Shown piece by piece: positions 385-29,478 of a stretch of 29,478 nt of DNA. The stretch is from assembly GCF_004010195.1 (NCBI RefSeq), contig NC_057718.1:61680136-61709613 (forward strand), written 5' to 3'. Source of the DNA: Chiloscyllium plagiosum (Eukaryota). Both the position numbers and the translations under genes were made by a program. Positions within the stretch are counted from its first letter, which is position 1. Every line of letters starts with the position of its first letter. The notes below the pieces were generated by a model. The model made no database searches and was not told the DNA's origin. It saw only the letters and a program-made list of their open reading frames with translations.

Positions 385-772
385 GAAATTACAAGCATAT
401 TTTAGGATATATTACCAGGATATGCAGGGCAAAGGAAAACAATTCTCGTTGAAAGATACTCTAAAGAAAACAGAAAATAGTAGCCTTTATCTGTGTTAGC
501 ATATTGTGGCAAAAGTGATTGCTTTCTGGTATAGGTCAAATTCAGAGAAATTTCAAAATCTTTATTTGCCGGTTTTGAATGATTATTTTAGTAAACTTCA
601 AGTGTTTCTTTGAAGAAACTACAAATGATGTTTGCGAGCTAGCTCAATCACTCTAAAATGAGAGTTATATAGCTTTGCTTGCTTAATTATAGCCAAGACA
701 CTTCAATCATTTTTAATTTAAAAAATTATCCTTGCAAGATAACTAATTTGTAAAGCAACACATGAACTAAAA
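385..772 (+). repeat. Unique AT-rich segment; source copy of a 388-bp inverted duplication (partner 2606-2994)
   Basis: The reverse complement of 2606-2994 matches 385-772 with 9 substitutions and one 1-bp indel by manual count (~97%). Confidence 0.97.
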
Positions 773-1830: not shown

Positions 1831-2494
1831 AAACATTGACATGTTATGCTGACCAGAAATTCTAATTAACATCACGAACTAGAATACTAATTATGTAGTA
1901 TTGTATACTTGCATTGTTATGTCTGACTCTTGTTTGACTTGAACAATTTTCATTATCTCAATTCATGGAACCTTTTAATGGAAAATTTTGAATATCGTGG
2001 TTGGTGTATTTTGCTAATATGTCCACTGCAGAAAACTGAACACAAGGTATATTGAAATGCATAGACAAAATGCTGCTGAAAATCTGAAATAAATACAGAA
2101 AATTTTGAAAATACTCAGCTGGTGGCACCTTTGGAGAGACAACCCAAAGTAATGGATAGAATTTTCCCAGCCTTTGAGAGGCGTGAAACAATGGCAAGAA
2201 ATATGGGTGAATACAGTGAGAATGAGAAAATCTGATTCTCGATATCGAGAGAATGTAACTTGATCTTCCATTGAAGGTTTGAAAGGCTCGATGAAAATCT
2301 TGCCAGTAAGCAGCAAGGTCCTTAGCTCCATGCATTTGCATCTTAATAATCTCACCTCATTTATATGGAGCTGGAGTTCTCCCAGGCACTAATGAGAAAA
2401 TAGACAGTGCCTATACCAGACTTGAAAATCAGAGTAAAGATTAGAGTCATGCTGGAAAAGCATAGCAGGTCAGGTAGCATCTGAGGAACAGGAA

Positions 2495-2530
2495 AATCGA
2501 CGTTTCGGGCAGGAGCCCTTCATCAGGAAT
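2495..2530 (-). ncRNA. Minimal type-I hammerhead ribozyme motif (best-preserved family A copy)
   Basis: The minus strand reads attc-CTGATGA-a-GGGC-tcct-GCCC-GAAA-cg-TC-gatt. It has an intact core, a 4-bp stem II, palindromic ACGT in place of stem III and a GUC triplet; stem I is weak. Confidence 0.8.
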
Positions 2531-2605
2531 GAGGCTGTCAGCCTCTGGTGTGGAGAGCTCTTCACTGAAGCTCACTGACACTACATACTGCAAACTTCCT
2601 TCTAG

Positions 2606-2994
2606 TTTTAGTTCATGTATTGCTTTACAAATTAGTTATCTTGTAAGGATAATTTTTTTAAATTAAAAATGATTGAAGTGTCTTGGCTATAATTAAGCAA
2701 GCAAAGTGATATAACTCTCATTTTAGAGTGATTGAGCTAGCTCGCAAACATCATCTGTAGTTTCTTCAAAGAAACACTTGAAGTTTACTAAAATAATCAT
2801 TCAAAACCTGCAAATAAAGATTTTGAAATTTCTCTGAATTTGACCTATACCAGAAAGCAATCACTTTTGCCACAATATGCTAACACAGATAAAGGCTACT
2901 ATTTTCTGTTTTCTTTAGAGTATCTTCCAATGAGAATTGTTTTCCTTTGCCCTGCATATCCTGGTAAGATATCCTAAAATATGCTTGTAATTTC
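2606..2994 (-). repeat. Inverted duplicate of 385-772 inserted in the loop of the PLE hairpin
   Basis: Direct base-by-base reverse-complement match; 389 bp versus 388 bp. Confidence 0.97.
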
Positions 2995-3041
2995 ACTCAG
3001 GGACACTCATCCATCTCTCCACCCCGGAGGGTCCCAGCCTC

Positions 3042-3077
3042 ATTCCTGATGAAGGGCTCCTGCCTGAAACGTCAATT
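3042..3077 (+). ncRNA. Minimal hammerhead ribozyme motif (right arm)
   Basis: attc-CTGATGA-a-GGGC-tcct-GCCT-GAAA-cg-TC-aatt; differs from the left-arm copy by CpG-type changes. Confidence 0.72.
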
Positions 3078-3379
3078 TTCCTGCTCCTCGGATGCTGCCT
3101 GACCTGCTGTGCTTTTTCAGTACCACTCTAATCTTGACTCTGATCTCCAGCATCTGCAGCCCTCACTTTTGCCTTGAAAATCAGAGTAGTTAACTGCTGG
3201 CTGCTGCTCACTGGCTTTATCCTCAGGCCTCAACCTCATGGTTTATTCACCAGCATCTTATTGCATGCTCCATTGACAGTGGAACACCTTCACTCTTCGT
3301 CTGCAGAAATCAACATCAGTTAGTCACCAGCCTCACTGCATCATCATACCTTATCTAAGACTAACTTAGAGTACACGTC

Positions 3380-3454
3380 AGCTCTTCACTGAGGCTCACT
3401 GACACTACATATTGCAGCAATCCTTCTAGGTCACTCAGGGATACTCATCCATCT
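3380..3454 (+). repeat. Source of the ~74-bp direct duplication found in two pieces in the hairpin loop (2556-2605 and 2993-3016)
   Basis: agctcttcactga(g/a)gctcactgacactacat...tccttctag and tcactcaggga(t/c)actcatccatct occur at both sites, with about 7 mismatches. Confidence 0.93.
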
Positions 3455-3635
3455 TAAGCATCTGCACAGGATGCATCTCAAGGATCTTCATTTGCTGTCT
3501 TACTGCTCAGTCAATTTGACTTTATTTGGATCCTCACTACATCTCTATCCCTTAGCACATTGCCACTTCCATTAGATATTACAGGGCTCATAGTATCTCT
3601 GTCCTGCCTTGTTTCTTAGTCCAGACAGAAAGCCA

Positions 3636-3872
3636 GGAGAAAGTGAGGACTGCAGATGCTGGAGATCAGAGCTGAAAAATGTGTTGCTGGAAAAGCGCAG
3701 CAGGTCAGGCAGCATCAAAGGAGCAGGAGAATCGACATTTTGGGCATAAGCCCTTCTTCAGGAATGAGGACCCTCCTCATTCCTGAAGAAGGGCTTATGC
3801 CCGAAACATCGATTCTCCTGCTCCTTTGATGCTGCCTGACCTGCTGCACTTTTCCAGCAACACATGTTTCAG
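3636..3872 (-). mobile_element. PLE terminal-repeat fold-back insertion (family A); near-perfect ~99-bp hairpin
   Basis: Arms at 3672-3770 and 3774-3872 (5 mismatches, mostly CpG decay) with a ccc loop. The extra ~36-nt tail is present only on the left arm. TSD cagacagaaagcca at 3622-3635 and 3870-3883. Confidence 0.92.
3779..3814 (+). ncRNA. Minimal hammerhead ribozyme motif
   Basis: attc-CTGAAGA-a-GGGC-ttat-GCCC-GAAA-ca-TC-gatt. Confidence 0.7.
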
Positions 3873-4649
3873 ACAGAAAGCCAAACAACTTATCATGGTA
3901 GCCAGCTTTGAACAGTCATGGCAGGATGGTGAATGTATTGTTTTTACGGCACTGTGCTATATCAATGTCAAACCTACAATACGTGTCAGCAGCTGACACA
4001 ACAAGCACATCATACATACTTCAACCAAGTGGTCATGTCTGAGTATCTAAGGAGACTAACCCTTAGTCAAGTGAAGGGGAACTGTGGTCAGTCAGGGGAT
4101 GTGGCCAAACACAAGGGTATTATTTGATCTCAGTGTTGGTGATCAGCCATGGTTAGTCAATGCCTAGTGCAATTAGGGTCTGGGAGATCCTTGTCCTTCC
4201 AGCCTGAGGACTGAGCATTGGTCTGTCCCTCAGGTTATATCTGACCAGCTCTGGGATTGTGGGTAGGTCATTTGGGGAGCTACAGAAGAATCAGCCTGGG
4301 AGTTGGTCTCTGGTCAATCAGGGTTTGAGCAGTCAACATCAAAGGAATTATATGGGGCAGTCCACGTTGTGTCAGTACAAATGGCAATTTCAAATGTAGG
4401 GATTGAAGGCATTAGACTCAGTCAAAGATAGGACAATGTTTGTGAAGGATGGCAACTCTAATTGGTAAGGCTGGGGGTCTGGTATAGCATGGGAGATTTC
4501 CACAAACTTCTCCTCAACTCTCCTCTTAACCTTCAATACCTTATCATAAATTTATCTTCCTGGTAATTGTTATCTGTGTTTCTGAGAAAACTGCCTTTCT
4601 CCTCACCCTACTTCTGCCCCCTCGTAATTTTAAACACCTCCATCAGAAC

Positions 4650-5380
4650 TTCTGGCAACTTTTGCTGCTTCATGAAAACAATGTCAATCATTCCTCAGCT
4701 CAGGCCCTCTAGCCCAGGCAGCATCTTGGTAAATCTCCTCTGCACTCCTTGTGCTGCCACATCCTTCTTATAATGCAGAGACCAGGACAGCACACAATAC
4801 CTAGCCACAGTTTTATACTTTTCCACCATAACCTTGCATTGGTTTAATATCGCTATGCCTTTTTAACCACTTTATCTACCTACTGCACTAACTTCAGCAA
4901 TCTATGAAAATGCACACCAAGGAGGCTCTGATTTTCAGTACTTTCCAGTGTCTTACCATTCAGAGTATATTTCCTTACCTTGCTAGCCTTCCCCAAATGT
5001 ATTACCACACACTTTTCAGGGTTGGAATTCCAGTTGCCACTGCTCTGCCCACCTGAGCAATCTTCCTCACTACTTACCGCCCAACTAATCTTTGTGTCAT
5101 CTGCGAACTTCTGGATCACACACCCGACATTTAAATCCAAACATGAACGTGCATCACAAACAGTAAGGTCCCCAGCACCATGTCCTGCAGAACTCCACTA
5201 GAAACAGACTACCAGTCATGGAAACATCACTGTGCCATCACCCTCAGTTTCTCACTCAGTTTTGGATCCAATGTGCCACTTTGCCTTGGATCCCAGAGTA
5301 CTTACTTTCTTGGTCAATCTGCCATGAGGCACCTTGCCGATAGCCTTACTAAAGTCAACGTGGACCACATCAAATGCATA
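4650..5380 (-). mobile_element. CR1 LINE ORF2 (RT) fragment, decayed and internally deleted
   Basis: Minus-strand peptides DVVHVDFSKAIGKVPHGRL, KFADDTKI and EKCVVIHLG...YTLNG are typical CR1 RT motifs. Confidence 0.9.
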
Positions 5381-7000
5381 ACTAATAAGGTGGGGAGCAG
5401 AGGTTTCCACGGGAAAAATTGTAACAGAGAGCAATGGGAAATTGCCATCAAAATCTCCATCCCCTAAAAGGCTGAAACTTACTCTTGTATGACTAAGTTT
5501 GGGTTACATCAAGTGTTTTCTCACTTTATCTTATCAAACTCACATCAGTAATTACCCCACCCTGCTTCTGTAGCATCTCCGACATCTAAATTCCATTCCA
5601 TCTTACCACACACCATTCCCAGAATCATGTGCTACTCAGAGATTTTCACCCACAAAACAGTATCCCTTGCATCTGTGCCAACTTCAAAAGGCTGCTGTGC
5701 ATTCAGACGAGTTATGCCCTTCTCCTTGACATAAAGATTAAGAACATGCCAGAAAAATGGAAGGTGGCACTGCCAATAAATGACTTTCTCCGTTCCGTCA
5801 GGGTACGTGACACACTCTTCTCTCACCTCACACTCACCTCTTAGTTCTATCTTCCACTGAGGCTTATACCGTTCTGCTGATACTATTGCCTGCAACCTAT
5901 TGTCTCACTCCTCCACCATCTCCCATAACACTAACCCTGCATGCCCTCTGTGCTGCTTTCTCAGTCCTTCAATACACTTTCGCCACCTAATTCCCACGTA
6001 TACCAGCATTAACGGCCCACTCATTCTCCACTTTTTTCTCATTGCAAGAGAAGACTACCCTTTAGGGCAGAGGGAGCTAATCCAGATGGGAGGGTAGCCC
6101 ACATCCATGTCCTCGTCCCTCATGAGGAGAGAATCCTGACCATCGCAGGAGAAGACTGGGACTGCTCCTGCGGGAATACCAAACATCCATGTCCTGCCAA
6201 ATATGGAAGTGCTAATCTTCATGCCAGTACCACTCTCCCAGTAACTCCATTGTCATTCTCATTTACCGTACACCCCATCGTACCACTGGCCGTGACGTCT
6301 CTCTTTTGTCTTGCAAGCTACAATAGCCTCCCCCATGCCCTCTGCAAGGTAATACCTGGTCCCTGCAGAACCAGCCTCCTCGACTTCTGAGGATGCAAGT
6401 TCTGAGGGCTCAGAGGAAGCATCATCAAGGCTGCCTCCTGCAACCCCCACCAGCTCAGATATTGACATCTCGCAACATAGAGAGTGTCTGTACCTAAGCT
6501 GGTGAGCACCTCACTGGGACAGCTTTGCAGCTGGCTGAGGGAGAAGCAGCCAAGGCCATTGACATTTGGAGGACTGTTGAAGACTGGGCACCTTCTCAGG
6601 AGAGGACCATGAGGTATCTGCAATCAGGTATTTCACCCACAGCCATAGGGGGGAACTGCAGCAGCAGACAGGGATGTGGAAGAGAATGGCCCTCATTGCC
6701 CAGAAGCTGCAGCAGTGCATTGAATCGTGTGACCATTTGTCTGTCTTCATGGACAGGTTAGTGGTTGCCATGGAGACACAGGGGCTGCTGGAAATGCACA
6801 GAGCCATGCACTTTATTGCCCCATCCACTGGTCATCAAGACTGAAGTCATGGAGACAGAGGGACAGAGAATCTTGGCCTATATACAGGGGCAAGGAGGTA
6901 AAGACAGTGTCAGGAGGCACCAATTGGTGTTTCATCCACACATAAGACCCTCTGCATTTTTCACGCAGGACACTGCAGAGATGGCCTAGCCCTTCACTTC

Positions 7001-8540: not shown

Positions 8541-9589
8541 GTCCCTGGACTGCAGAGCATAGACCCCTAACAATGAAAACTTCGACCTGACCCTTGAACT
8601 GTGGCCAATCCCCTGGGCTGGTATCAGAGACTGCCCTTGTCATACTGTACTAGGAATCCCTGACTGACAGGAACCTGCATGGATTTCTGTGAAGGCTGCA
8701 TCCCTAAAACATTGAGACATGGCTGTCTATTTAGTCAACATGCTGTCAGTTTGCTGTATAAGCTGCTGGCACATAGTGCAAGTGTGAGATTGACATGGCA
8801 CACTGCTACAGTGCAAACATTGTGCCCCCTAGTTTGAGAAATGCTGACTATCAGGGCAAGCTGCCTCTTGTGTGACTGTATGACTTGGCAATGGCAAGGC
8901 AGCTAAGTACTAGGTTAGTGAACATTAAGACAGCAGACAACAGCCCAACAATGCAGCCTAATTCAGCCTGTAAACTGAGTACCTGCCTTGATGCCAAATG
9001 CCCTTTCTGCAGCCATTCAGTGCAAGTCTCTGATGCACCCTGTAAGATAAGTCTGTGCTCCCAGGAGAGCAGTGTCAGTGATTAGTAAAAATGCCAGGAT
9101 GGTCACAACAGGTTGGCTGATGCCATTTGGCAACGTCTGTGGACAAAGTGAATGTTCATCTGGTTCCCAGTGGATTGTGACCTGAGGTGTTACTGCCCAG
9201 TGTCTAGTATCGGGATTGTTTGGAGAAAGCAGACAGCTAAATCTACCAGCTACAAGCTCCAGTTCCCTTGTCGAGTCTTCCTAATGTCAAACTTGTTTGA
9301 TGAGTTTGGTTAGATAGGAGGTTATCAATGAGAGGAGTTATGCCATTAGCCAGAGTTTACCAAGAAATAATCCTTTATCATTCAGCTGCCTTGCAAAAAT
9401 CTCACCATGTCACTTGTGAAAAGCATAAAAGATGGAATAAGATGATCTTGACACAGGGATGAACCTTGGTGCACTTGCTCTGCCACACACCATTTCTGCC
9501 CACAACACTCAGACCCTTGTAAGATTCTGCCCTTAGTCAATAAATGGGAAAATTAAGCCCAATGTTCCAGATTGCTAGCATTTCATATG

Positions 9590-10035
9590 AACCTTCTTCT
9601 GAGAAAAATTGCCCAGCAATGTCCTATATTAAAAAACAGGACATATATAAATCGAGACAATTACTGCCCTAATCGGTCACTTGCAATCATCAGCAAAGTG
9701 ATGAAAGGTGTTCTTGACTGTGCCATCGAGCAGCACGTAATCAGCAATAATCTACTCCCTGATGCTCACCTTGAACTCCCCCAGGATCACTCAGCTCCAG
9801 ACCTCATTATAGCGTGAGACAAATAGTCAAGTTCCAGAGGTGAGGTGAGAGTTAATGCCCTTGATAGCAAAGCAGCATTTGACCCAGTTTGGCGTCAAGG
9901 AGCCCGAGCAAAATTAAAACAGTAAAGAGGTCAACACACCAGTCTGTGAAGTCAGGCATTGCACAAAGGAAGATGATGATGGTTGTCGGTAGTCAATCAT
10001 TGCAGTCCCAAGACATTGTCAGAGGGTTCCTTAGG
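9590..10035 (+). mobile_element. Old CR1/L2-group LINE, RT N-terminal part (host of the TE nest)
   Basis: Peptide NYCPNRSLAIISKVMKG...NNLLPDAHLEL.QDHSAPDL is a decayed NYRPISLLSxxSKVME...QFGFRxGHS; an ALDxKAAFDxVW motif follows at ~9857-9892. Confidence 0.82.
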
Positions 10036-10553: not shown

Positions 10554-10833
10554 TTTTTTTTCTTTTTCTTTTTGGTTTCTTTCCCCTATACTACTGCCTG
10601 ACAGTGGTAGTGTTTATTTTTTCTGCAAACTTTCTCATTGTTTCTTTTTTCTCTTTCTTTCTTTTTCTTTTTTTATTCTTTCTTTCCCCCGGCAACCCAT
10701 ATCATGTGTGTGTAGGTGTCAGACACAATGAAAAAACAATAAGTGTATAAATCTTTAGTTATGTACCACCACCAAGAAAGGAAACATTCTAGTGGCCAGT
10801 GACAAGCAGTGCCCTTCTCAGAGGACAATGCTC
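10554..10833 (-). mobile_element. Tx1-type LINE 3' UTR fragment with A-rich tail (copy A)
   Basis: Homologous to but clearly diverged from 10846-10983. T-rich tracts on the plus strand. Bracketed by the direct repeat atcccctgttaa (10542-10553 and 10834-10845). Confidence 0.75.
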
Positions 10834-10845
10834 ATCCCCTGTTAA

Positions 10846-11255
10846 TTTTTTTTTCCATGTTGTGTGTGTGCAGGTGTGAGACACAAGGTGCACGAATCTT
10901 TATTCAGTTTCCACCACCAGGAAGAAAGGAAACACCCAAGTGGCCTATGACAAGCAGTGCCCTTCACATCAAAGGGCAATGCTGTGTGATCAAACAGTGA
11001 AGGGGAGGGCAGGGATTAAATCAAAATAGAGTTGGAGGGGGAAATGATGCACTCCACTCCCTGCGGCGCCCACCTCTCCCTGAACAACTCCAGGGTGTTG
11101 GTGGACACCGCGTGCTCCTTCTCCAAGGATACCCGGGCTCTAATGTAACCGCGGAAGAGGGACAGGCAGTCGGCCCTAACGACCCCCTCCATGGCCCGCT
11201 GCCCGGACCTGTATATGGCCAGTTTGGCCAGGCCCAGGAACGGACCCATGAGGTC
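10846..11255 (-). mobile_element. Tx1 (L1-superfamily) LINE 3' end: ORF2 C-terminus, 3' UTR and poly(A) (copy B)
   Basis: Minus-strand LGLAKLAIYRS...DCLSLFRGYIRARVSLEKEHA...FRERWAP resembles the Tx1 ORF2 C-terminus; stop codon at 11016-11018. Confidence 0.82.
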
Positions 11256-12973
11256 AACCAGAGCTTCCTGATTGGCCCAGGTTAACAACCCTAATCAAGA
11301 ATTTCAGTCAACAAGATCTACCTGGCTCCAATCACTACAGTAACCAAGCTACATACAAATTGGCATAGACATAAGAAGATTGGAAAGTAAGCATGTGGCT
11401 AAAGGAGTGATGTGGGAAAGACAGGTTGCATTTCATGGGGCACTAGCACCAGTATTGAGATTGAAAGGAACTCTCCCATTAGGACATGCTCCACCTGAGC
11501 AGATTTGGGACCAGGACTCTAGCAGGAAGGCTAAGTAGTGTGGTAACAAGGGCTTTAAATTAGTTTAAATGGGAAAAGGCTCAGGAGAGGTTATTAAAGT
11601 TTCCAGAACAAATATTAGGACAAAGAGTATGGAAAAGGTTAGAAACCTAACTTCAGGTACAGCAGATAACGGAACAACTATGAGAAGAGGGGTGGTCAAC
11701 CCAGAGCTGAGGATGTTGTACTTAAATGCACACAGTATAAGAAACAAGGTAAATGAGTTTGTAGTGCAGAGTGATTTGTGACTGCAAAGGAATCAGGGCT
11801 GGGAGCGAAATATCCATGGATACGCGTTGTATTGAAAAGACAGGCAGATGGGCAGTGGGAGGGTTGTCTTCTTAGTAAGAAAGGAAATTAAATCAATACT
11901 AAGAAGCAATATTGGGTCAGCAGGCATACAATCAATGTGGGTCAAATTGAAGAACCACATAGGTAAAAAGACGCTGATGGGAGTTGTGTCCAGGCTTCTT
12001 AGCAGTAGTCAGGATGTGGTGCAGCAAATAAAGCAGGAGATAGTAAAGGCATGTAAGAAATGCACGATTACCTTATCATGATGACTTCAATGTGCAGGAG
12101 GACTGGAAAAATCAAATTGGTAGTAGATCCCAAGAAAAAGAATTTGTAAAATGTCTATCAGATGTTTTTTTTGGAGCAGCTTGAGGTGGAGCCCCATTGG
12201 GGAACAGGCAATTCACCACCTGGTGATGTGTAATGAGGCAGACTTTATTAGGGAGTTTAAGGTGAAGGAAGCCCTAAGGGGCATTGATCATAATATGATA
12301 GAATTTACCCTGTGGTTTGAGAAATGGAATCAGATGTAACAGTATTACAACTGAGTAAAGGTAACCACAAAGATATGAGGGAGGAGCTGGGTAGACAGGA
12401 TCAGAAGGAGAGTCTAGCAGGGAAGACAGTGGAGCAGTAATGGCAAAGAAACGAGAGGCCGGGTAGTGTGGCCTTGGTCATTAGGCAGATTTTGGAATCT
12501 GTTTGTCAGGATGAGATTGCGGAGTACTTGAAAGTGAATGGGAAAATAGGGCAGAGTCAGCACAACTTTGTCAAGTGGAAGTCATGCCTGACAATCTATT
12601 AGAGTTCTTTAAGGAAGAAATGAGCAAGTTAGACAAAGAAGAGCCAGTGGGCATGATCTATTTCTAGAAGTCCTTTGACAAGGTGTTGCACAGAGGCTAC
12701 TAAATAAGATAACAGCCCATGGTATCAGGAGCAAGGTACTAGCATGGATAGAGGATTGGCTGACTGGCAGAAGGCAAAGCGTAGGGATAAAGGGGTCTTT
12801 TGCAGACTGGCTGCCAGTGAGTGGTGGAGTTGCACAGGGGTCAGGGTTGGGACCACACTATTCATGCTATAAATTAATGATCTGAATGAAGGAACTGAGG
12901 GCATTGTTGTTAAGTTTGCAGATGACACAAAGATAAGTGAAGGAACAGATAGTGTTAGGGAAGTGAGGGGGCA

Positions 12974-13049
12974 GCTCTCCTTTATCTAAATTACTTATTA
13001 CCTCCTTAAAGAATTCTAATAGATTTGTCAGGTATGATCTCCACTTGGA
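12974..13049 (-). repeat. Inverted ~75-bp CR1 RT fragment embedded in the same CR1 (homologous to 12570-12644)
   Basis: The minus strand encodes KWRSYLTNLLEFFKEVISNLDKGE; its reverse complement aligns to gtcaagtggaagtcatgcctgaca...agacaaagaagagc. Confidence 0.85.
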
Positions 13050-13383
13050 CGGACTCAGAGAGTAGGCAAAAAAGAGGCAGTTGGAATACAATGTGGAAAA
13101 TTGTGAGGTTGTGTATTTTGGTAGGAAAACTAGAGACATAGACTACTTTCTAAATGGGGAAAGGCTTCAGAAATCTGAAACACAAAGGGACTTAGGAATC
13201 ATGGTTTAGGATTCATTTAAGTTTCACACGAAGATTCAGTTGGCAGTTAGATAAGCAAATGCAATGTTTGCATTCATCTTAAAAAGAATAGAATATAAAA
13301 GTGGGGATGTTCTGCTGATGCTCTGTTCTGACTGCATTTGGAATATTGTGAGACGTTTTGGTCTTGGTATCTAAGGAAGGATG

Positions 13384-13717
13384 ATTCCTGATGAAGGGCT
13401 CTTACCTAAAACGTTCATTAGAACATAGAACAATACAGCACAGAACAGGCCCTTCAGCCCACGATGTTGTGCCGAACATTTGTCCTAGCTTAAGCACCTA
13501 TCCATGTACCTATTCAATTGCCACTTAAAGGTCACCAATGATTCTGACTCTGCCACTCCCATAGGCAGCGCATTCCATGCCCCCACCACTGTCTGGGTAA
13601 AGAACCTACCCCTGATATCTCCCCTATACCTTCCACCCTTCACCTTAAATTTATGTCCCCTGCTCCTCAGATGCTGCCTGACCTGTTGTGTTTTTCCAGC
13701 ACCCCACTCTTGACTCT
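13384..13717 (+). mobile_element. PLE family A truncated arm (decayed hammerhead) interrupted by a CR1 tail
   Basis: attcCTGATGAagggctcttacctaaaacg at 13384-13413, resuming as cctgctcctcagatgctgcc at ~13659. TSD tctaaggaag(g/c)atg at 13370-13383 and 13715-13728. Confidence 0.85.
13418..13660 (-). mobile_element. CR1 LINE 3' end
   Basis: tagaacatagaacaatacagcacagaacaggcccttcagcccac... is the reverse complement of a CR1 terminal microsatellite and 3' UTR. Confidence 0.85.
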
Positions 13718-13790
13718 AAGGAAGCATGGTCATGGAGGGGGTCCAGAGGAGATTCAAAAGAATGATCCAGGGATGAAGGATTTTTAATAT

Positions 13791-14144
13791 GGGCAGCACG
13801 GCAGCTCAGTGGTTAGCACTGCTCCCGTACAGTGCCAGAAACCCGGGTTCGATTCCAACCTCGGGCCACTATCTGTGTGAAGTTTGCACATTCTCCCTGC
13901 ACATTCTCTGCGTGGGTTTCCTCCAGGTGCTCTGAATTCCTCCCACAATCAAAAAATATGTTGGTTAGGTGAATTGGCCATGCTAAATTTCCCATAGTGT
14001 TCAGGGATGTGTAGATTAGGTGCATTAGTCAGGGGTAAATGGGGTAGGGGAATGGGTCTAGGTGGGGTACTCTTCAAAGGGTCAGTATGGACTTGTTGGG
14101 CCAAATTGCCTGTTTCCACACTGTAGGGATTCAATGATTCTATG
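13791..14144 (+). mobile_element. tRNA-derived HE1/V-type SINE, full length
   Basis: A-box-like gcagctcagtgg, B box ggttcgattcc, V-domain core (gtttgcacattctcc...gtgggtttcctcc), CR1-like tail; aatatg on both flanks. Confidence 0.92.
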
Positions 14145-14501
14145 AATATGAGGAGCGATTAAGGACTTGATGGAGTTTAGAAGGACGAGGAGCGCTCTGA
14201 TTGAAACTTACAGAACACTGAGAGGCCTGGATATGGAGAAGATTGTTCCATCAGAGGAGAGACTAGAACCCGAGGGCACAGCCTCAGAGTGAAAGGCTGA
14301 CTCTTTATACCTGAGATGAAGAAGAATTTCTTCAGCCAGAGAGTGCTGAATCAGTGGAACTCAATACCACAGAAGACTGTGGAGGCCAAGTCATTGAGTG
14401 TCTTTAATACATAGATAGATATATTCTTGATCAGTAAGGGAATCAAGAGTTATGGGGAGAAGACAGAAGAATGGGGTTGAGACAGGTATCACACAATAAG
14501 C

Positions 14502-14715
14502 GGGGCGAAAGTGAGGACTGCACATACTGGAGATTAGAGTCAAGATTAGAGTGGTGCTGGAAATGCACAGCAGGTCAGGCAGCATCCAAGGAGCAGGAAA
14601 ATCGATGTTTTGAGCAGGAGCCCTTCAGCAGGCTCATCCCGAAACGTCGATTTCCCTGCTCCTAGGATGCTGCCTGACCGGCTGTACGTTTCCAGCACCA
14701 CTCTAATCTTGACAC
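14502..14715 (-). mobile_element. PLE family A fold-back insertion
   Basis: Complete inverted arm on the left and truncated arm on the right, folding inside hammerhead stem II. TSD cacacaataagc at 14490-14501 and 14716-14727. Confidence 0.9.
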
Positions 14716-14744
14716 CACACAATAAGCACTGAACTATACTCATG

Positions 14745-14988: not shown

Positions 14989-15938
14989 TGTATAGGTAGA
15001 ATTGAGAGAGAACCGAAACCCTGACTCTATGGCCTTACTGTCCATGGTCTGGTTTAGAAAGGAAGATGCATGTGTTTCCTTACCCCTGAGTGTGTGGTCA
15101 ATTTGAAAACCTAGCAGCAACCTCTCATGGGTTTAAACAAAAATAATTCTTTACTCATATATTCACTCCAAAACCCAAAACTCCAACATTACATCACTCC
15201 GTCAGCACTCATACACTCACTTAAGGAAAAATCAGGTAAAGAGAATTTTTACACGTTATGAAAGAAAGAATAGTTCATAATTCATGTGTTTGGTTCATCT
15301 TAGGAAAAATCGTGTGCTGCAGGCCCATTGAAGATGGGGTTTTCACTCCTGAAGGATAGTCTAGGTGGATTCAAAAGTTGGAGTTGTATATTAAGATTAT
15401 TTTAGGATTCCCTTGAAGAGATGGAGTAGGAGGTTGTTTCTCCATACCAGCGGGCTTGAGGAGGAACAGGCAGATATTGCAGGTCCCAATTTTTAACTGT
15501 TGTTGTCCTGTCTGCTGCTGTCTCTGCAATGTGGTTTGCAGACTGAATTGGTTTCTCCTTGGTTTTGGGAATAAAAGTTTGTCATCTGAAGGCAGTTTAT
15601 ATCAGGTGCCCCTGCCACCGACAAATACTTATACTGTACATTCCAAATGATTTAGAAGTCTGAAGCCATTGTTACACTGTGGGGAAGTGGGCAATGAGTT
15701 ATTTACACCTGATTATGATGAACTGACTTTCACACTTTGTATTTGTTAAGTTCCAAACTTAGTGATATGAAGGCTGCACTTGTAGGTTTACTAATAATAG
15801 GAGATTAAATTACATAAATGGTTTCTACCTTTGTATATCCATCAAAGGGAGGCACAGAACCCATTGTCACTCAATTAAGAAGATTAGAGACTTGAGTAAC
15901 TTTTAAGTCTATGTCAAAATTGCAAAAGTCACCTGACT

Positions 15939-16252
15939 GGGCGGCATGGTGGCACAGTGGTTAGCACTGCTGCCTCACAGCGCCAGAGACCCGGGTTCAA
16001 TTCCCGCCTCAGGCGACTGACTGTGTGGAGTTTGCACGTTCTCCCCGTGTCTGCGTGGGTTTCCTCCGGGTGCTCCGGTTTCCTCCCACCATCCAAAGAT
16101 GTGCAGGGTCAGGTAAATTGGCCATACTAAATTGCCTGTAGTGTTAGGTAAGGGGTAAATGTAGGGGTATGGGTGGGTTTCGCTTCGGCGGGTCGGTGTG
16201 GACTTGTTGGACCTCTTCCCACACTGTAATCTAATCTAATCTAATCTAATCT
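15939..16252 (+). mobile_element. HE1/V-type tRNA SINE, young full-length copy
   Basis: A box tggcacagtgg, B box ggttcaattcc, CpG-rich intact core and (taatc)5 tail. Confidence 0.96.
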
Positions 16253-16316: not shown

Positions 16317-16580
16317 TGAGTAGCACAGTTGCTCAGTGGTTAGCACTGCTGCCTCACTGCGCCAGGGACCTAGATTCGATTCCACCCTTAGGGGTGATTG
16401 TCTGTGTGGAGTTTGCACATTCTCCCACGTGGATCTCCTCCAGGTGCTTTGGTTTCCCCCCACAGTCAAAGGATGTGCAGGTTAGGTGGATTAGCCATGG
16501 AAAATGCAGGGTTACAGGGATAGAGTAGGTGTGACTCGATGGGCTGAATGGCTTGCTTCCACACTGTAGGGATTCTATAT
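16317..16580 (+). mobile_element. HE1/V-type tRNA SINE, older copy
   Basis: gctcagtggttagcactgctgcctcac head, conserved core and ccacactgtagggattctat tail. Confidence 0.92.
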
Positions 16581-16626
16581 CTGAAATTCTATTCTGAATA
16601 CTTAATACTGTTTATTGCATGTGAGA

Positions 16627-16775
16627 ACCATTTATAAGGCACAAGTCAGGAGTGTGATGGAATACTCCCCACTTGCCTGGTGAGTGCAGCTCCAACAACA
16701 CTCGAGAAGCTCAACATCATCCAGGACAAAGCAGCCCACTTGATCAGCACTCCATCCAACACCTAAACATTCAGT
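16627..16775 (+). mobile_element. Continuation of the old host LINE
   Basis: Encodes TIYKAQVRSVMEYSPLAW...KLNIIQDKAA, a CR1-group RT C-terminal motif. Confidence 0.85.
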
Positions 16776-16776
16776 C

Positions 16777-17738
16777 AACACTGGAGCCCCCCAAGGATAT
16801 GTCCTCAGCCCCCTACTGTACACTCTGTAACTGTGTCGCCAAATTCCAAGCAAACGCTATCTACAAGTTTGCTGATGACACCAGCAAGGTAGGACAGATA
16901 TCTAACAATGATGAATCAAAATACAGAAGGGAGATAGAAGGTTGTTGACGTGATGCAGTGAGAACAACGTCTCTCTCTTTCTCAATGTCAGCAAAACGAA
17001 AGAACTGTTCATTGCCTTCAGAAAGAAAGGAAGAGAATGCATCCCCATTTACATCAATGGAACAGAGGTTGAGAGGGTAGAGAGCATCAAGTTCCTTGGC
17101 GTGAGGATAACCAACAATCGCATAGATGCAATGTTCAAGAAGGCACAACAATGCCTCTTCTTTCTCAGGCACCTCAGGGAATTTAGCATGTCCATAAGGA
17201 CCCTCACCAACGTTTACAGATGCACCATTGAGAACATACTATCCAGATGCATCATGGCCTGGTAAGGCAACTGCTCTGTCCAGGACCATAAGAAACTACA
17301 GAAGGTTGTGTGCACAGCCCAGGATATGACAGGAGCCAACTTTCCATCCATGGAATCCATTTACACAGCCTGTTGCCACAGAAAGGCTGCCAATATCATC
17401 AAAGAAGCATCACACCCAGTAATGATCTCCTACAACCTCTTCCGTCAGACAGAGGATAGAGATGGTTGAACACACGATCCAGCAGGTTCAGGAACAGCTT
17501 CTTCCCAGTCATTATTAGTCTGATGAATGAACTGTCTAGCCTCAAATAATGCTGAACTTGTGAATGTTGATCTTGCCTTGTGCATGCCATGGGCAATGTA
17601 ACATGTATGCCTCTCTCTATGTTTCTTTTCACCCTATGAATTGTATGTCATTGCTTATTATGATCTGCTTGTACTGCTCATAAACACAACTTTCACTATA
17701 CTTAGGTACATTTGACAATAAATAAATCAAATCAAATC
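16777..17738 (+). mobile_element. Rex1/Babar-type LINE, 5'-truncated RT fragment with 3' tail
   Basis: TGAPQGYVLSPLLYTL, KFADDTSKVGQISNNDESKYRREIE and FYRCTIENIL motifs; ends aataaataaatcaaatcaaatc. Confidence 0.88.
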
Positions 17739-18800: not shown

Positions 18801-19045
18801 TCATAGTATCCCTACAGTGCAGATAGAAGCTGTACAGCCCATCAAGACTGCACTGTCCAATAGCATCCCACCCCTTCACCCTATTCTCACAACCCTTCAT
18901 TTAACATGGCCAATCCACCTAACCTGCACATCCTTGGACTGTAGGAGGAAACCAGAGCACCTAAAGGAAATACATGCAGACACGGGGAGAATGTGCAAAC
19001 TCCATATGGACAGCCACCCAAGGCTGAAATTGAACCCAGGTCCCT
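18801..19045 (-). mobile_element. HE1/V-type SINE, 5'-truncated
   Basis: Reverse complement of the tail, the core (gcagacacggggagaatgtgcaaactcc) and the B box. Confidence 0.9.
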
Positions 19046-19980: not shown

Positions 19981-19990
19981 TAGCTCTCAA

Positions 19991-20269
19991 TCATAGAATC
20001 CCAGCAGTGCGGAAGCAGGCCATTCAGCCCATTGACCTGCCAAAGAGCATTCCACCTAAATCTTCCCCATCCCTGTAACCCCACATTTCCCATAGATAAC
20101 CTGCACATTCCTGGACTCTATGGGTAATTTAGCATGGCCAATCCACCTAACCTGCACTGGACTGTGAGGTGAAACCGGAGCACCTAGAGGAAACCCACAC
20201 AGACAGTTGCCCCTGGGTGGAATCGAACCCAGTTCCTTGATGCAACAGTGCTGGACACTGAGCCATCAT
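19991..20269 (-). mobile_element. HE1/V-type SINE with internal deletions
   Basis: tcatagaatcc...gcaggccattcagccc tail, core, ggaatcgaaccc (B box, reverse) and cactgagcca (A box, reverse). Confidence 0.9.
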
Positions 20270-21349: not shown

Positions 21350-21866
21350 ACCATTCTGGCTATTGAGGGAGTGCAGCGTAGGTTCACGAGGTCAATGCTT
21401 GGAATGGCAGGATTACCTTACACTGAAAGACTGGAGTGACTGGGCTTGTATACCCTTGAGTTTAGAAGACTGAGAGGGGATCTGATTGAGACATATAAGA
21501 TTATTAGAGGATTGGACACTCTGGAGGCAGGAAACATGTTTCCGCTGATGCGTGAGTGCCAACCAGAGGACACAGCTTAAAAATATGGGGTAGACCATTT
21601 AGGACAGAGATGAGGAGAAACTTCTTCACCCAAGAGTGGTGGCTATGTGGAATGCTCTGCCCCAGAGGGCAGTGGAGGCCCAGTCTCTGGATTCATTGAA
21701 GAAAGAGTTGAATAGAGCTCTCAACGATAGTGGAATCAAGGGATGTAAGGCAGGAACAGGATACTGATTAAGTATGATCAGCCATGATCATATTGAATGG
21801 TGGTGCAGGCTCGAAGGGCAGAATGGCCTACTCCTGCACCTATTGTCTAATTTCTACTGTCTATTG
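21350..21866 (+). mobile_element. CR1 LINE 3' end, relatively well preserved
   Basis: IEGVQRRFTR, LEFRRLRGDLIETYKI and RRNFFTQ motifs; tail gaatggcctactcctgcacctattgtcta. Confidence 0.93.
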
Positions 21867-26664: not shown

Positions 26665-27195
26665 GCGGACAGAGGGCGGGGGGGGGGGTGATAGCCTAGG
26701 GTTGGGATGGGGTGCAGACAGGTGGTGGGGAGATCGGGGGCGCGCACGCCGTGTGCTGCTGCCTAGTCTCCTGAACAGGGAGACAACTTAGCAAGTAATT
26801 GCTGTGAATCCCATTGAACTGATTGGGGTGGGGGAGGCTTCAGCAATGCTGCAGGTCCCTTACACACAAGTGTGTGTCTGTTCAGAAACAAACTCTGAGA
26901 CAGAGAGAGGGAGCAAGGCAAGCTGATCGAGGAAAAAGGAAACTTCAGAAAACTCCAAACCCCAGAGGAGAGGCATTAAATTGGTATGAGTTAAAACATA
27001 TGTTTATATTTTACCTTTCCAGGAATATACAAAATTGGTATATATCAAATCGATGCGTGTTCTGGATGTGTTAGCGGACCGATGTGCTACTGCATTGTCT
27101 AGTGTGCTGTGAAGGTCACAGCTTGAGGACAGTCATTGAATACCCTGCATTAAAGGTAAAGAGAAAGGGCAGTCTCGTGCTTTGAATAGTGCAAG

Positions 27196-27340
27196 GTGAA
27201 AGTGATGACTGCAGATACTGGAGATCAGAGTCAAGATGCCATCAAGAGTCCTGATGAAGGGCTTTTGCCAGAAATGTCGATTTTCCTGCTCCTCGGATAC
27301 TGCCTGACCTACTGTGCTTTTCCAGCACCACTCTAATCTT
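27196..27340. mobile_element. PLE family A insertion: inverted ~42-nt tail, short filler and truncated forward arm with hammerhead
   Basis: gtgaaagtgatgactgcagatactggagatcagagtcaagat (minus), then CTGATGAagggcttttgccaGAAAtgTC. TSD ctttgaat(a/g)gtgcaag at 27180-27195 and 27338-27353. Confidence 0.9.
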
Positions 27341-28315
27341 TGAATGGTGCAAGTTAACCATCAAGCAGGATACAAGAATTTCAGTGAACCTGTAAAATCA
27401 AGTATCTTGAAATTGACTACTTACCTATCAACATTAGTGCTACTGGTAACAGCCGGTGTAATGGCTCATTGTCATTGCTTCACAGAAGCCAGAGACAAAT
27501 CCATCATTCTTTTCTAAACTTTTATCTTTTGGACTCACCTGTCCGTTTTAATCTGTCTGTACGTATGTTGTGTTGTTAATCCCTCTAGCATTTAGTAACT
27601 CATAAAATAATTTTTCTGCTAAATCAAGAAGCCTGTTTAAATTGGCTCTTCATAAAACATAATTTGCTTTAGGAGAGAGGCATCTGTCTAGTTACAACCA
27701 ACCAAGGGGACTGATTAGAATAAAGAAGGAGAAGCAGCTCATTCCTCCTCACCTGGGAGTTTGACAAATTTGGGATAGACTATTTCCTGATGAATTGTAA
27801 TGAAGTAGGGAACCTTGCCACATCATCATCATGCTGTTACAACAAGAGTTTTGTGACCCAACCAGGTATCAGTGCAACTGAGCAGTTCTCCGTGTGTATT
27901 TGTATTATTCTCCATTAAATTCCCCAAAGATAGAAAATATTCTTTTTTCCCTTAAGTGCAGTGCAGGTGCTGCTTATTTTTGAGTAAAATTACACAAAAC
28001 AATTTCTTCAACAAAAATTGTGTCTCTTCCTATAATCTTGTTATGTGGAGTAAGAGGGATCAAAAATACATTATATACAAATATGTCTGCTGAATGTCAT
28101 TCATGGCCAGCAGAGAGCTGGATGATGTTGGAATGTTGTTTTGCATGCCTGGAACTCAATCAGCTGGGATATTGAAATGCCTCCATGCAGCACATGAAAC
28201 AGAGGTACAAACACACACAGAGCTGAAAAGGAAATGTATGGGGATAACAAAAATAGAGGGGACTTCAGCAGCTGCTCCTATGGCTTCAAGAACACCTGTT
28301 TCATTAGGATGTATG

Positions 28316-28495
28316 GCAGCATCTGTGAAGAGAAATCAGGTTAACTTTTCGGGTCCAGTGGCCCTTCCTCGGAACAATTCTGAGTTCTGACAGTCACTGG
28401 ACCCGAAACGTTAACTCTGATATCTCTCCACAGATGCTGCCAGACCTGCTAAGCTTCCCAAACAATTTCCAGCATCTGCATATGTTTTTTTTTTA
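28316..28495 (+). mobile_element. PLE family B fold-back insertion with hammerhead motifs
   Basis: Inverted arms at 28316-28375 and 28384-28441. The plus arm reads GAGTT-CTGA..gtcactggacccGAAAcgTT-AACTC (5-bp stem I, small core deletion). The minus arm reads ccgaggaagggccactggacccgaaaagtt. No clear TSD. Confidence 0.82.
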
Positions 28496-28512: not shown

Positions 28513-28902
28513 GAATAATTCTTCACCACTGAAACTAATAATGTGAACGTTCAGTCAATAGCTATGTACAATGCAGAGTTGTGGTGTTTTTCATTAGGTT
28601 TAATCGCAACACAGAAAATGCAGTTGTTCAAGACACTACTTCCATGTTAGGAAAACATTCAACATTATTACCATGGATATCCTGGACACCCCGTGCTGGC
28701 CTCCTACGAATAATTCTTCACCACTGAAACTAATAATGTGAACGTTCAGTCAATAGCTATGTACAATGCAGAGTTGTGGTGTTTTTCATTAGGTTTAATC
28801 GCAACACAGAAAATGCAGTTGTTCAAGACACTACTTCCATGTTAGGAAAACATTCAACATTATTACCATGGATATCCTGGACACCCCGTGCTGGCCTCCT
28901 AC
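28513..28902 (+). repeat. Tandem duplication, 2 x 195 bp
   Basis: 28513-28707 and 28708-28902 appear identical. Each unit is ~167 bp of flank plus the first ~28 bp of the PLE RT element. Confidence 0.97.
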
Positions 28903-29478
28903 CAGCCCTCGACCTCTTCATAGCCAACTGCCGCCGCGATATTAACCGCCACCTGAACTCCCCCACCCCTCTCACCCACTCCAACCTCTCACCCTCGGAA
29001 CGCGCAGCACTCTACTCCCTCCGTTGCAACCCCAACCTCACTATCAAACCAGCAGACAAGGGAAGCGCGGTAGTAGTTTGGCGCACCGACCTCTACACCG
29101 CTGAGGCCAAACGCCAGCTCGCAGATACCTCCTCCTACTGCCCCCTTGACCATGACCCCACCCCCCACCACCAAACCATCATCTCCCAGACCGTCCATAA
29201 CCTCACCACCTCGGGGGATCTCCCATCCACCGCCTCCAACCTCATAGTCCCACAACCCCGCACCGCCCGTTTCTACCTCCTGCCCAAAATCCACAAACCT
29301 GACTGCCCCGGACGACCCATCGTCTCAGCCTGCTCCTGCCCAACCGAACTCATCTCCTCCTACCTCGACACGGTCCTGTCCCCATTAGTCCAAGAACCCC
29401 CCACCTACGTTCGTGACACCACCCACGCCCTCCACCTACTCCAGGATTTCCGCTTCCCCGGTCCCCAACACCTCATCT
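28875..29478 (+). mobile_element. 5'-truncated Penelope-like element reverse transcriptase ORF (probably Neptune clade), open to the window end
   Basis: Stop-free frame SWTPRAGLLPALDLFIANCRRDI...TIKPADKGSAVVVW...RFYLLPKIHKPDCPGRPIVSACSCPTELISSYLD...TYVRDTT. DKG and PKIHK/RPIVS are hallmark PLE RT motifs. It has no ATG start, so it is absent from the ORF track. Confidence 0.95.

Follow-up and report, generated by a model that had tools for sequence, protein, structure and literature searches.

A hairpin-shaped Penelope-like insertion in Chiloscyllium plagiosum whose loop was copied from neighbouring DNA, apparently in two steps

A 29,478-nt stretch of the genome of Chiloscyllium plagiosum (hereafter the window) contains a hairpin-shaped Penelope-like stub, inert and dead, whose loop consists of DNA copied from the same locus. 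We consider it likely that a 75-nt filler sealed two cDNA arms at integration and that a 388-nt piece was added to the loop as a later repair patch in lineage A. This nested, apparently two-age history is the only distinctive point of the locus, and it depends on one contig of a related organism, B, whose onward letters we infer. It records known processes in fossil form and does not represent a novel type of mobile element.

The unit consists, in order, of a 16-nt target-site duplication (TSD), an inverted arm, a loop, a forward arm with a tail and the second TSD (Table 1). All of the pieces named in a first-pass annotation of this DNA were found by coordinate where it had placed them. Its division of the loop into three copied pieces needs one correction: all three matches are real, but the donors are two, the first and third pieces being collinear in one of them (3380-3454). 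The microhomologies that it listed (AG, TC and ATCT) are all present at the junctions; the fourth junction (2605/2606) has 0 nt of microhomology. A Pfam search in nine frames gave no host gene around the unit.

Table 1. Features of the unit and of its donors, in window coordinates
Feature	Position	Strand	Evidence
Left TSD	2421..2436	+	16/16 against 3173-3188
Right TSD	3173..3188	+	16/16; contigs of organisms A and B run from 3152 through the TSD into the flank
Inverted, tail-less arm (Penelope-like terminal repeat)	2428..2557	-	114/130 complementary to 3015-3144, ungapped
Candidate minimal hammerhead motif, left arm	2499..2526	-	core intact; stem II 4 bp; stem I, 3 of the first 4 pairs
Loop	2556-3016		between the arms; two donors, a 75-nt direct copy split by a 388-nt inverted copy
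Filler, first 50 nt	2556..2605	+	direct copy of 3380-3429, 44/50; AG microhomology with the left arm
388-nt insert	2606..2994	-	inverted copy of 385-772, 379/388 plus one extra T (9 substitutions, 1 gap)
Filler, last 24 nt	2993..3016	+	copy of 3431-3454, 23/24; ATCT microhomology with the forward arm
Forward arm with one-sided tail	3013..3172	+	alignment of 10 window copies; tail 28-37 nt (3145 or 3136 to 3172)
Candidate minimal hammerhead motif, right arm	3046..3073	+	core intact; stem I closing pair broken (3074 A)
Insert donor	385..772	+	original site, AT-rich single-copy DNA, 1.8 kb upstream of the insert
Filler donor	3380..3454	+	192-266 nt beyond the right TSD; single copy
Palindrome in the filler donor	3411..3421	.	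perfect 5+1+5; private to lineage A

Contigs from four of the 24 runs listed were compared with the window over 1950-3625: X3 (organism A), X19 (organism B, one run) and X11 and X9 (organism C, one sample). Word share with the window is 0.82 for X3, 0.41 for X19 and 0.26-0.27 for X11 and X9; X3 may possibly come from the sample that was assembled. The compared interval lies outside the donor at 385-772, and donor and copy are not told apart in it contig by contig. The contig results cover 40 of 56 substitution rows, 15 of 791 joints and 32 of 260,511 pieces, and support for a junction was taken to mean 31 letters on each side. Organism B has the left TSD with the start of the arm, the arm with the 50-nt piece, and the right end. 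No empty target site was seen among the relatives compared (organisms B and C, the latter being without value as an outgroup). Contigs of organism C follow 1950-2201 and the donor at 385-772; from about 2202 to 3625 single-copy cover is missing, for example at 2259-2264, 2566-2605 (X11), 3238-3293 and 3350-3405. After 2201 the two runs of organism C depart into different sequence, and a deletion or replacement over 2202-3625 is possible. This hole in the cover was given no evidential weight, and organism C was not used for presence or absence.

The arms had been read by the first-pass annotation as the published Penelope-like layout, and they conform to it in the inverted truncated repeat, the one-sided tail, the TSD and the minimal hammerhead. 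Penelope-like insertions are described with an inverted truncated repeat, a one-sided tail of 30-40 nt and a short TSD (PMC3846280, PMC8557442), and the inverted truncated repeat with one-sided tail and the short TSD found here are those of an EN+ Penelope-like insertion. The family alignment is made of 10 pieces from the window, and loose ends of other copies in the contigs show that the family sequence truly begins at 3013. Contigs of A and B cover the inverted arm up to 2466, and a B contig covers it over 2517-2557. The ends of the two arms lie within 2 nt of each other, and in a DNA fold the arms pair mutually over 121 of 130 nt. They are 87.7% alike mutually, against up to 88.4% with other copies in the window, and have three non-majority states in common, two of them found in further window copies as well.

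The inverted arm overlaps the left TSD and starts at 2437 if the overlap is assigned to the TSD; the tail length of 28-37 nt depends on the same assignment. The last nine nucleotides of the left TSD (2428-2436) agree at 8 of 9 positions with the element itself close to its second start site, and the sibling fold-backs have about 3, 0-1 and 3 matching bases at the same place. As far as sequence goes, this match suggests that the primer may have annealed to Penelope RNA at 2428-2436. An anole element is described, in the accessible text of PMC11167929, as starting in vitro without such homology between TSD and element.

Three further fold-backs in the window belong to the same family (3622-3883, 14490-14727 and 27180-27353; arms 92/97 and 70/85 alike in the first two). 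They have TSDs of 14, 12 and 16 nt, the 16-nt one with one mismatch, and a tail on one arm each. A fourth (28304-28452; arms about 77% alike, loop about 41-47 nt and without a local match) is of another family, to which a decayed piece at about 2040-2140 may also belong. TSDs of 12-16 nt are thus found in three of the four other fold-backs, and the fourth has only a 9-nt match that is itself part of the element. None of their four loops is a local copy: the loops measure 3 nt (the sibling at 3672-3872), about none, about 12 nt (best other match 11/13, far off) and 41 nt (best 23/41). A pattern scan of viral contigs returned 23 loci, with no arm match above 33 nt (four short ones) and no loop match; the same scan of metagenome contigs returned one locus, its match confined to the 20-nt pattern.

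At the end of the window, an ORF fragment of 194 codons (28896-29478) runs off the edge and is unlinked to the arm repeat within the window, whereas a full-length EN+ copy would join the repeat to an ORF for reverse transcriptase plus GIY-YIG. It resembles chordate and rotifer clusters (DUF8422, and one automatically named reverse transcriptase fragment) and has no Pfam or PDB match; by this resemblance, it is probably a piece of a Penelope-type ORF. Just before it lies an exact 195-nt tandem duplication (28513-28902), which may be an error of the assembly or else a large duplication that accompanied an insertion.

Both arms contain a candidate minimal type I hammerhead, with the unpaired base before a 4-bp stem II, according to a descriptor that follows the accessible text of PMC4209133 (core, unpaired base before stem II, palindromic 15.2-16.2). 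The descriptor matched four times in the window, against 0.18 times per shuffle (100 shuffles). Rfam, run over the whole window with E up to 1, gave seven matches, all below the gathering score and none of them a hammerhead. On free folding of both motifs stem II forms and the ribozyme fold does not (z of -1.45 and -1.13). At position 3074, where the right-hand motif has A, most family contigs have G. Single motifs are described as being without detectable cleavage and dimers as cleaving at a low level (PMC4209133, in the part available). A role for the two hammerheads is not supported here, as the motifs lie on opposite strands and the closing pair of the right one is broken; they are the family's standard minimal motifs.

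The two outer pieces of the loop together reproduce a continuous 75-nt donor (3380-3454), from which only base 3430 is missing. This donor lies inside continuous flank contigs of A and B, at the depth of the flank. When the 50-mer was shuffled 200 times, the best match in the window averaged 26.8 and reached at most 30, against the observed 44; for the 24-mer (200 shuffles), the mean was 15.9 and the maximum 19, against 23. Upstream of 3013 the family sequence is a C-rich stretch in the loose ends of other copies, among those listed, and ATCT is therefore a true microhomology, extendable to 8 of 11. Within the donor, organism B differs at 3417, 3419, 3420 and 3421, that is, by four substitutions within five bases of the palindrome that lineage A has to itself (Table 1). 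From the alignment, this palindrome is probably one mutation event, which would explain most of the clustered filler mismatches, and it probably arose by one short template switch. A second near-perfect palindrome (7/8) is formed at 2550-2565 by the last 8 nt of the arm and the first 8 nt of the filler, and the start of the filler resembles the start of the forward arm; both features may have guided the template switch that began the filler. Fillers of 1-26 letters stand at the joints of other family copies in 10 of the 12 rows listed of 800, and joints are symmetric within 2 nt in 3 of the 15 listed of 791. Fillers and symmetric ends are thus both regular in this Penelope family, whereas a long local filler is not (0 of the 4 other window fold-backs).

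The 388-nt insert replaces one base of the filler. It has no TSD, and its junctions show 0 nt and 2 nt (TC) of microhomology. Its donor is intact in A, B and C and keeps an unchanged distance from 1950 within single contigs of organisms B and C; because the donor is in place inside these long contigs, 2606-2994 is the copy. The insert has four states that the donor shows in none of A, B and C (2707, 2708, 2927 and the extra T at 2653). It keeps the state of B and C at 2644 and 2755, two positions at which the donor of A has changed. Given its own states and the retained B/C states, the insert is a real paralogue and not an assembly echo. The absence of a TSD and of poly(A), the loss of one base and the microhomologies of 0 and 2 nt are the features of a templated repair insertion.

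Insert and arms differ greatly in divergence. The insert departs from its donor at 9 of 388 positions (2.3%) and the arms from each other at 16 of 130 (12.3%; Fisher P=2.8e-5, or P=6e-4 with CpG changes excluded). Between organisms A and B, 35 of 1079 aligned letters are different; the divergence of the insert is close to this value (P=0.49), and that of the arms is larger (P=3.5e-5). When the palindrome cluster is counted once, the difference between the 75-nt piece and the insert is not significant (P=0.06-0.14). Since the A-B split the 388-nt copy has gained about five private changes, against two in the donor of A (40 of 56 rows listed), which slightly exceeds what would be expected of a clearly post-split origin. 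Arm divergence was rejected as the sole clock, as the shared non-majority states and the values of 87.7% and 88.4% indicate that the arms need not have been identical at birth; it is a weak clock, because the arms are hardly closer mutually than to other subfamily copies. The polymerase jump to a place about 200 bp beyond the target, which the first-pass annotation had put forward, is the best account of the 75-nt filler and is not supported for the 388-nt piece, which is far less diverged than the arms.

Both captures might instead be post-integration repair: a fold-back almost without a loop would have been patched at its tip with 75 nt before the A-B split and later broken again, with no Penelope proteins involved. 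We think this improbable. The arm ends within 2 nt of each other do resemble those of a loop-less fold-back, as does the 3-nt loop of the sibling at 3672-3872, the second event is itself at least one post-integration patch at the same spot, and the filler is perhaps less diverged (4-5 events in 74) than the arms (16/130). Yet the filler lies right at the joint, shares microhomology with the element at both ends and has left the flank intact; its raw divergence does not differ significantly from that of the arms (7/74 versus 16/130, P=0.65); and the short fillers at the joints of other copies, counted above, speak for sealing at integration.

Further evidence that the two pieces differ in age comes from organism B. 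Of a 161-letter contig of X19, 89 letters align to 2517-2605 with two differences, placing 39 and 48 letters around the joint of arm and filler. A further 70 letters lie past 2605 and do not continue into 2606, the exact left edge of the insert. After subtraction of the donor contig, X19 depth amounts to at most 32 letters' worth in any bin of 2566-2957, and residual bins of similar size occur in X9 (organism C). This residual depth is too small for the 70 letters to lie in 2566-2957 as one block. It is possible that organism B keeps a short right-hand part of the insert, as family depth swamps everything from 2958 onward, and organism B may carry a different patch at the same base. Were the insert absent, the 70 letters would be uninterrupted filler and would end at 3061, 49 nt into the right arm, as compared with 43 nt into the left.

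A single integration with four template switches would also produce the observed order: copying would have left the flank donor at 3430, taken in 385-772 from the other strand and returned one base further on, and organism B would later have lost or replaced the insert. Insertions built from several templates in one event are known in the human germline (PMC8421209, as described in the part accessible), the arms may stem from two RNA molecules, so that their 12% divergence need not reflect age, and the insert has somewhat more private changes than its donor. This history nevertheless requires that the loss in B began precisely at the edge of the insert, a chance of about 1 in 736 if breakpoints fall at random within the unit, and without conversion of the 50-nt piece to the donor. 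The 50-nt piece of B differs from that of A at two positions and that of A from the donor of B at 5 of 50, so the piece in B was not overwritten by the donor; the value of 5/50 compares with 9/388 for the insert (P=0.014). We therefore regard one origin for the whole loop, as originally proposed, as quite unlikely: the insert is far less diverged than the arms and the B contig departs at its left edge.

That the assembler stitched together the inverted copy, or the whole composite, is very improbable. A 115-N gap and the exact 195-nt tandem duplication are signs of short-read scaffolding in the window. Contigs of A match 1974-2466 and 2965-3042 with no differences and 3152-3625 with two; on the shorter side of their junctions they extend for 30, 30 (26-30 for the ATCT joint) and 21 letters, below the 31-letter rule. 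The only junction with that support on both sides is that between the arm and the 50-nt piece, in B, and 2605/2606 is not bridged among the A contigs listed (32 of 260,511 pieces). Against an artefact, the A contig over 2965-3042 crosses two junctions, including the right junction of insert and filler, without a difference (30 letters on the insert side), and the insert's own states and its retained B/C states are beyond an assembler's invention.

Least credible of all is a Pack-like or retrozyme-like unit, with host DNA between ribozyme-bearing repeats copied whole, now or formerly: terminal repeats do suffice in cis for Penelope to mobilise unrelated sequence in rotifers (PMC3846280, accessible part), but both donors are local, the ribozymes face opposite ways on arms that pair mutually over 121 of 130 nt, and loop depth is at flank level (16-42 in A, 10-15 in B) as against up to 1e6-1e7 on the arms. 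The unit arose in place and has not moved, since the two donors lie at the same locus. At 90% likeness in the A and B contigs (four runs compared), the loop pieces stay at flank depth (flanks about 19, arms up to 1.5e7), which bears out the earlier view that they are not dispersed repeats. The term 'Pack-element-like', used in the first-pass annotation, applies to shape only, with no sign of dispersed loop copies.

For the preferred history, a filler at integration and a later patch, the following course would account for the unit. Before the A-B split, a Penelope-like endonuclease would have cut the target with a stagger of 15-16 nt. Reverse transcription would then have lengthened both 3' ends from two start sites some 30-37 nt apart, so that two short cDNA arms stood head-to-head, one of them with a tail. 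An anole element cleaves and extends both strands in vitro, and its reverse transcription starts at two sites that bound the tail (PMC11167929, accessible text). End-joining would then have sealed the gap: one cDNA end may have paired by microhomology with the flank 190-270 nt downstream and, after copying 75 nt, annealed again to the other arm (AG on one side; ATCT, 8/11 when extended, on the other). The direct orientation of the filler would fit a top-strand cDNA that copied a bottom strand bared by resection of the right end, and the copying could have been done by the element's reverse transcriptase or by a host polymerase; we infer the timing of the filler, the enzymes and this strand geometry. 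A much later break inside the filler, in lineage A and at about the time of the A-B split or after it, would have been repaired with 388 nt copied from the opposite strand 1.8 kb upstream, at the cost of one base and without a TSD. Such a templated repair insertion would need no Penelope protein. The direction of copying is itself an observation, as are the anatomy, the donors, the unequal divergence and the departure of the B contig at 2605.

As a single fossil, the locus indicates that local DNA can serve to close the joint of a Penelope fold-back. A joint of local DNA favours two separately primed cDNA ends brought together by end-joining; the joining step of the Penelope cycle is left unresolved in the accessible text of PMC11167929 and PMC8557442. 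The locus also cautions against assuming that host DNA found between two arms is as old as the insertion. A wider conjecture, tentative and on balance doubtful, is that the joints of Penelope fold-backs take up local templated DNA repeatedly, both when the element integrates and millions of years afterwards, with a hairpin of 130-bp arms and a 75-nt loop making the loop prone to breakage. If this were true, the very many stubs in the genome would be a standing engine of short local and inverted duplications, many apparent 'Penelope captures' would be later repair patches, and the present locus would be a dated, nested example. Should loops draw patches above background genome-wide, dead hairpins would be a measurable source of local duplications.

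Elsewhere in the window, five copies of one SINE-like repeat are 69-80% alike (13790-14139, 15938-16240, 16322-16578, 18891-19045 and 19989-20263), and LINE-like fragments were recognized by eye around 4700-5500, 9550-9950, 11500-13400, 16600-17500 and 21350-21850. Pfam gave an ALKBH8_N match at 16954-17262. Two diverged tandem copies of about 140 nt (72%) at 10697-10983 adjoin a minus-strand frame (11019-11294) that looks, by eye, like the end of an L1/Tx1-type ORF.

Among known systems, the closest in architecture are the EN+ Penelope-like elements, which have the same head-to-head inverted truncated repeat, one-sided tail, short TSD and hammerhead in the repeat (PMC3846280, PMC8557442 and PMC11167929, all in their accessible parts). 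The present unit differs from them in having two short arms only, with neither an ORF nor a direct repeat pair, and in a joint made of local host DNA, where the elements in those accounts have a palindrome or a few bases. In the rotifer Adineta vaga, unrelated non-coding sequence has been found between solo Penelope terminal repeats with TSDs around them, an arrangement shared with the unit described here (PMC3846280, part accessible). The rotifer capture was interpreted as mobilisation in trans to a new place; in the present unit the two donors are no more than 2 kb away, nothing moved along with the element and the larger piece seems to be younger than the insertion itself.

The filler has its counterpart in the templated insertions of L1, of which 22 cases with local templates of less than 250 bp are described in tumours (10.1101/2024.08.27.596794) and three in cells (PMC11702581), each according to the portion of the source available. 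In these, too, local DNA of less than 250 bp is copied during sealing, the TSD is kept and microhomology is found at inversion joints. L1 belongs to another class of retroelement, the cases are somatic or from cell culture, and their templates typically lie within 15 bp, as compared with 192-266 nt here. The 388-nt piece resembles instead the class 2 TSIPs, which are repair patches without TSDs (PMC5110952), and the germline MMB-TIs, some of them multi-template, from a search that covered templates within 100 bp (PMC8421209), as far as the accessible text of both describes them. It shares with them the absence of TSD and poly(A), the one-base loss, the microhomology of 0-2 nt, the intact donor and the germline setting. 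It differs from TSIPs, whose donors are distant, and from MMB-TIs in a donor that is 1.8 kb off on the same chromosome, with the copy inverted.

Non-LTR retrozymes likewise contain type I minimal hammerheads derived from Penelope repeats and, in the accessible part of their description, consist of at least two tandem same-strand units, each with a hammerhead (10.64898/2026.07.22.740005). The two motifs of the present unit are head-to-head, on opposite strands, which is not the retrozyme arrangement. Pack elements are moved as units by a transposase and carry unlinked DNA. The present unit has in common with these DNA elements the inverted ends and the TSD around host DNA; dispersal as a unit and unlinked cargo are absent here, the composite not being dispersed at 90% likeness in A and B, where the loop stays at flank depth. 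We found no report of vertebrate Penelope fold-backs with flank-derived loops in a literature without most subscription papers and without supplements, in agreement with the first-pass annotation. Taken against these systems, the locus is a known type of insertion joined with known kinds of templated DNA.
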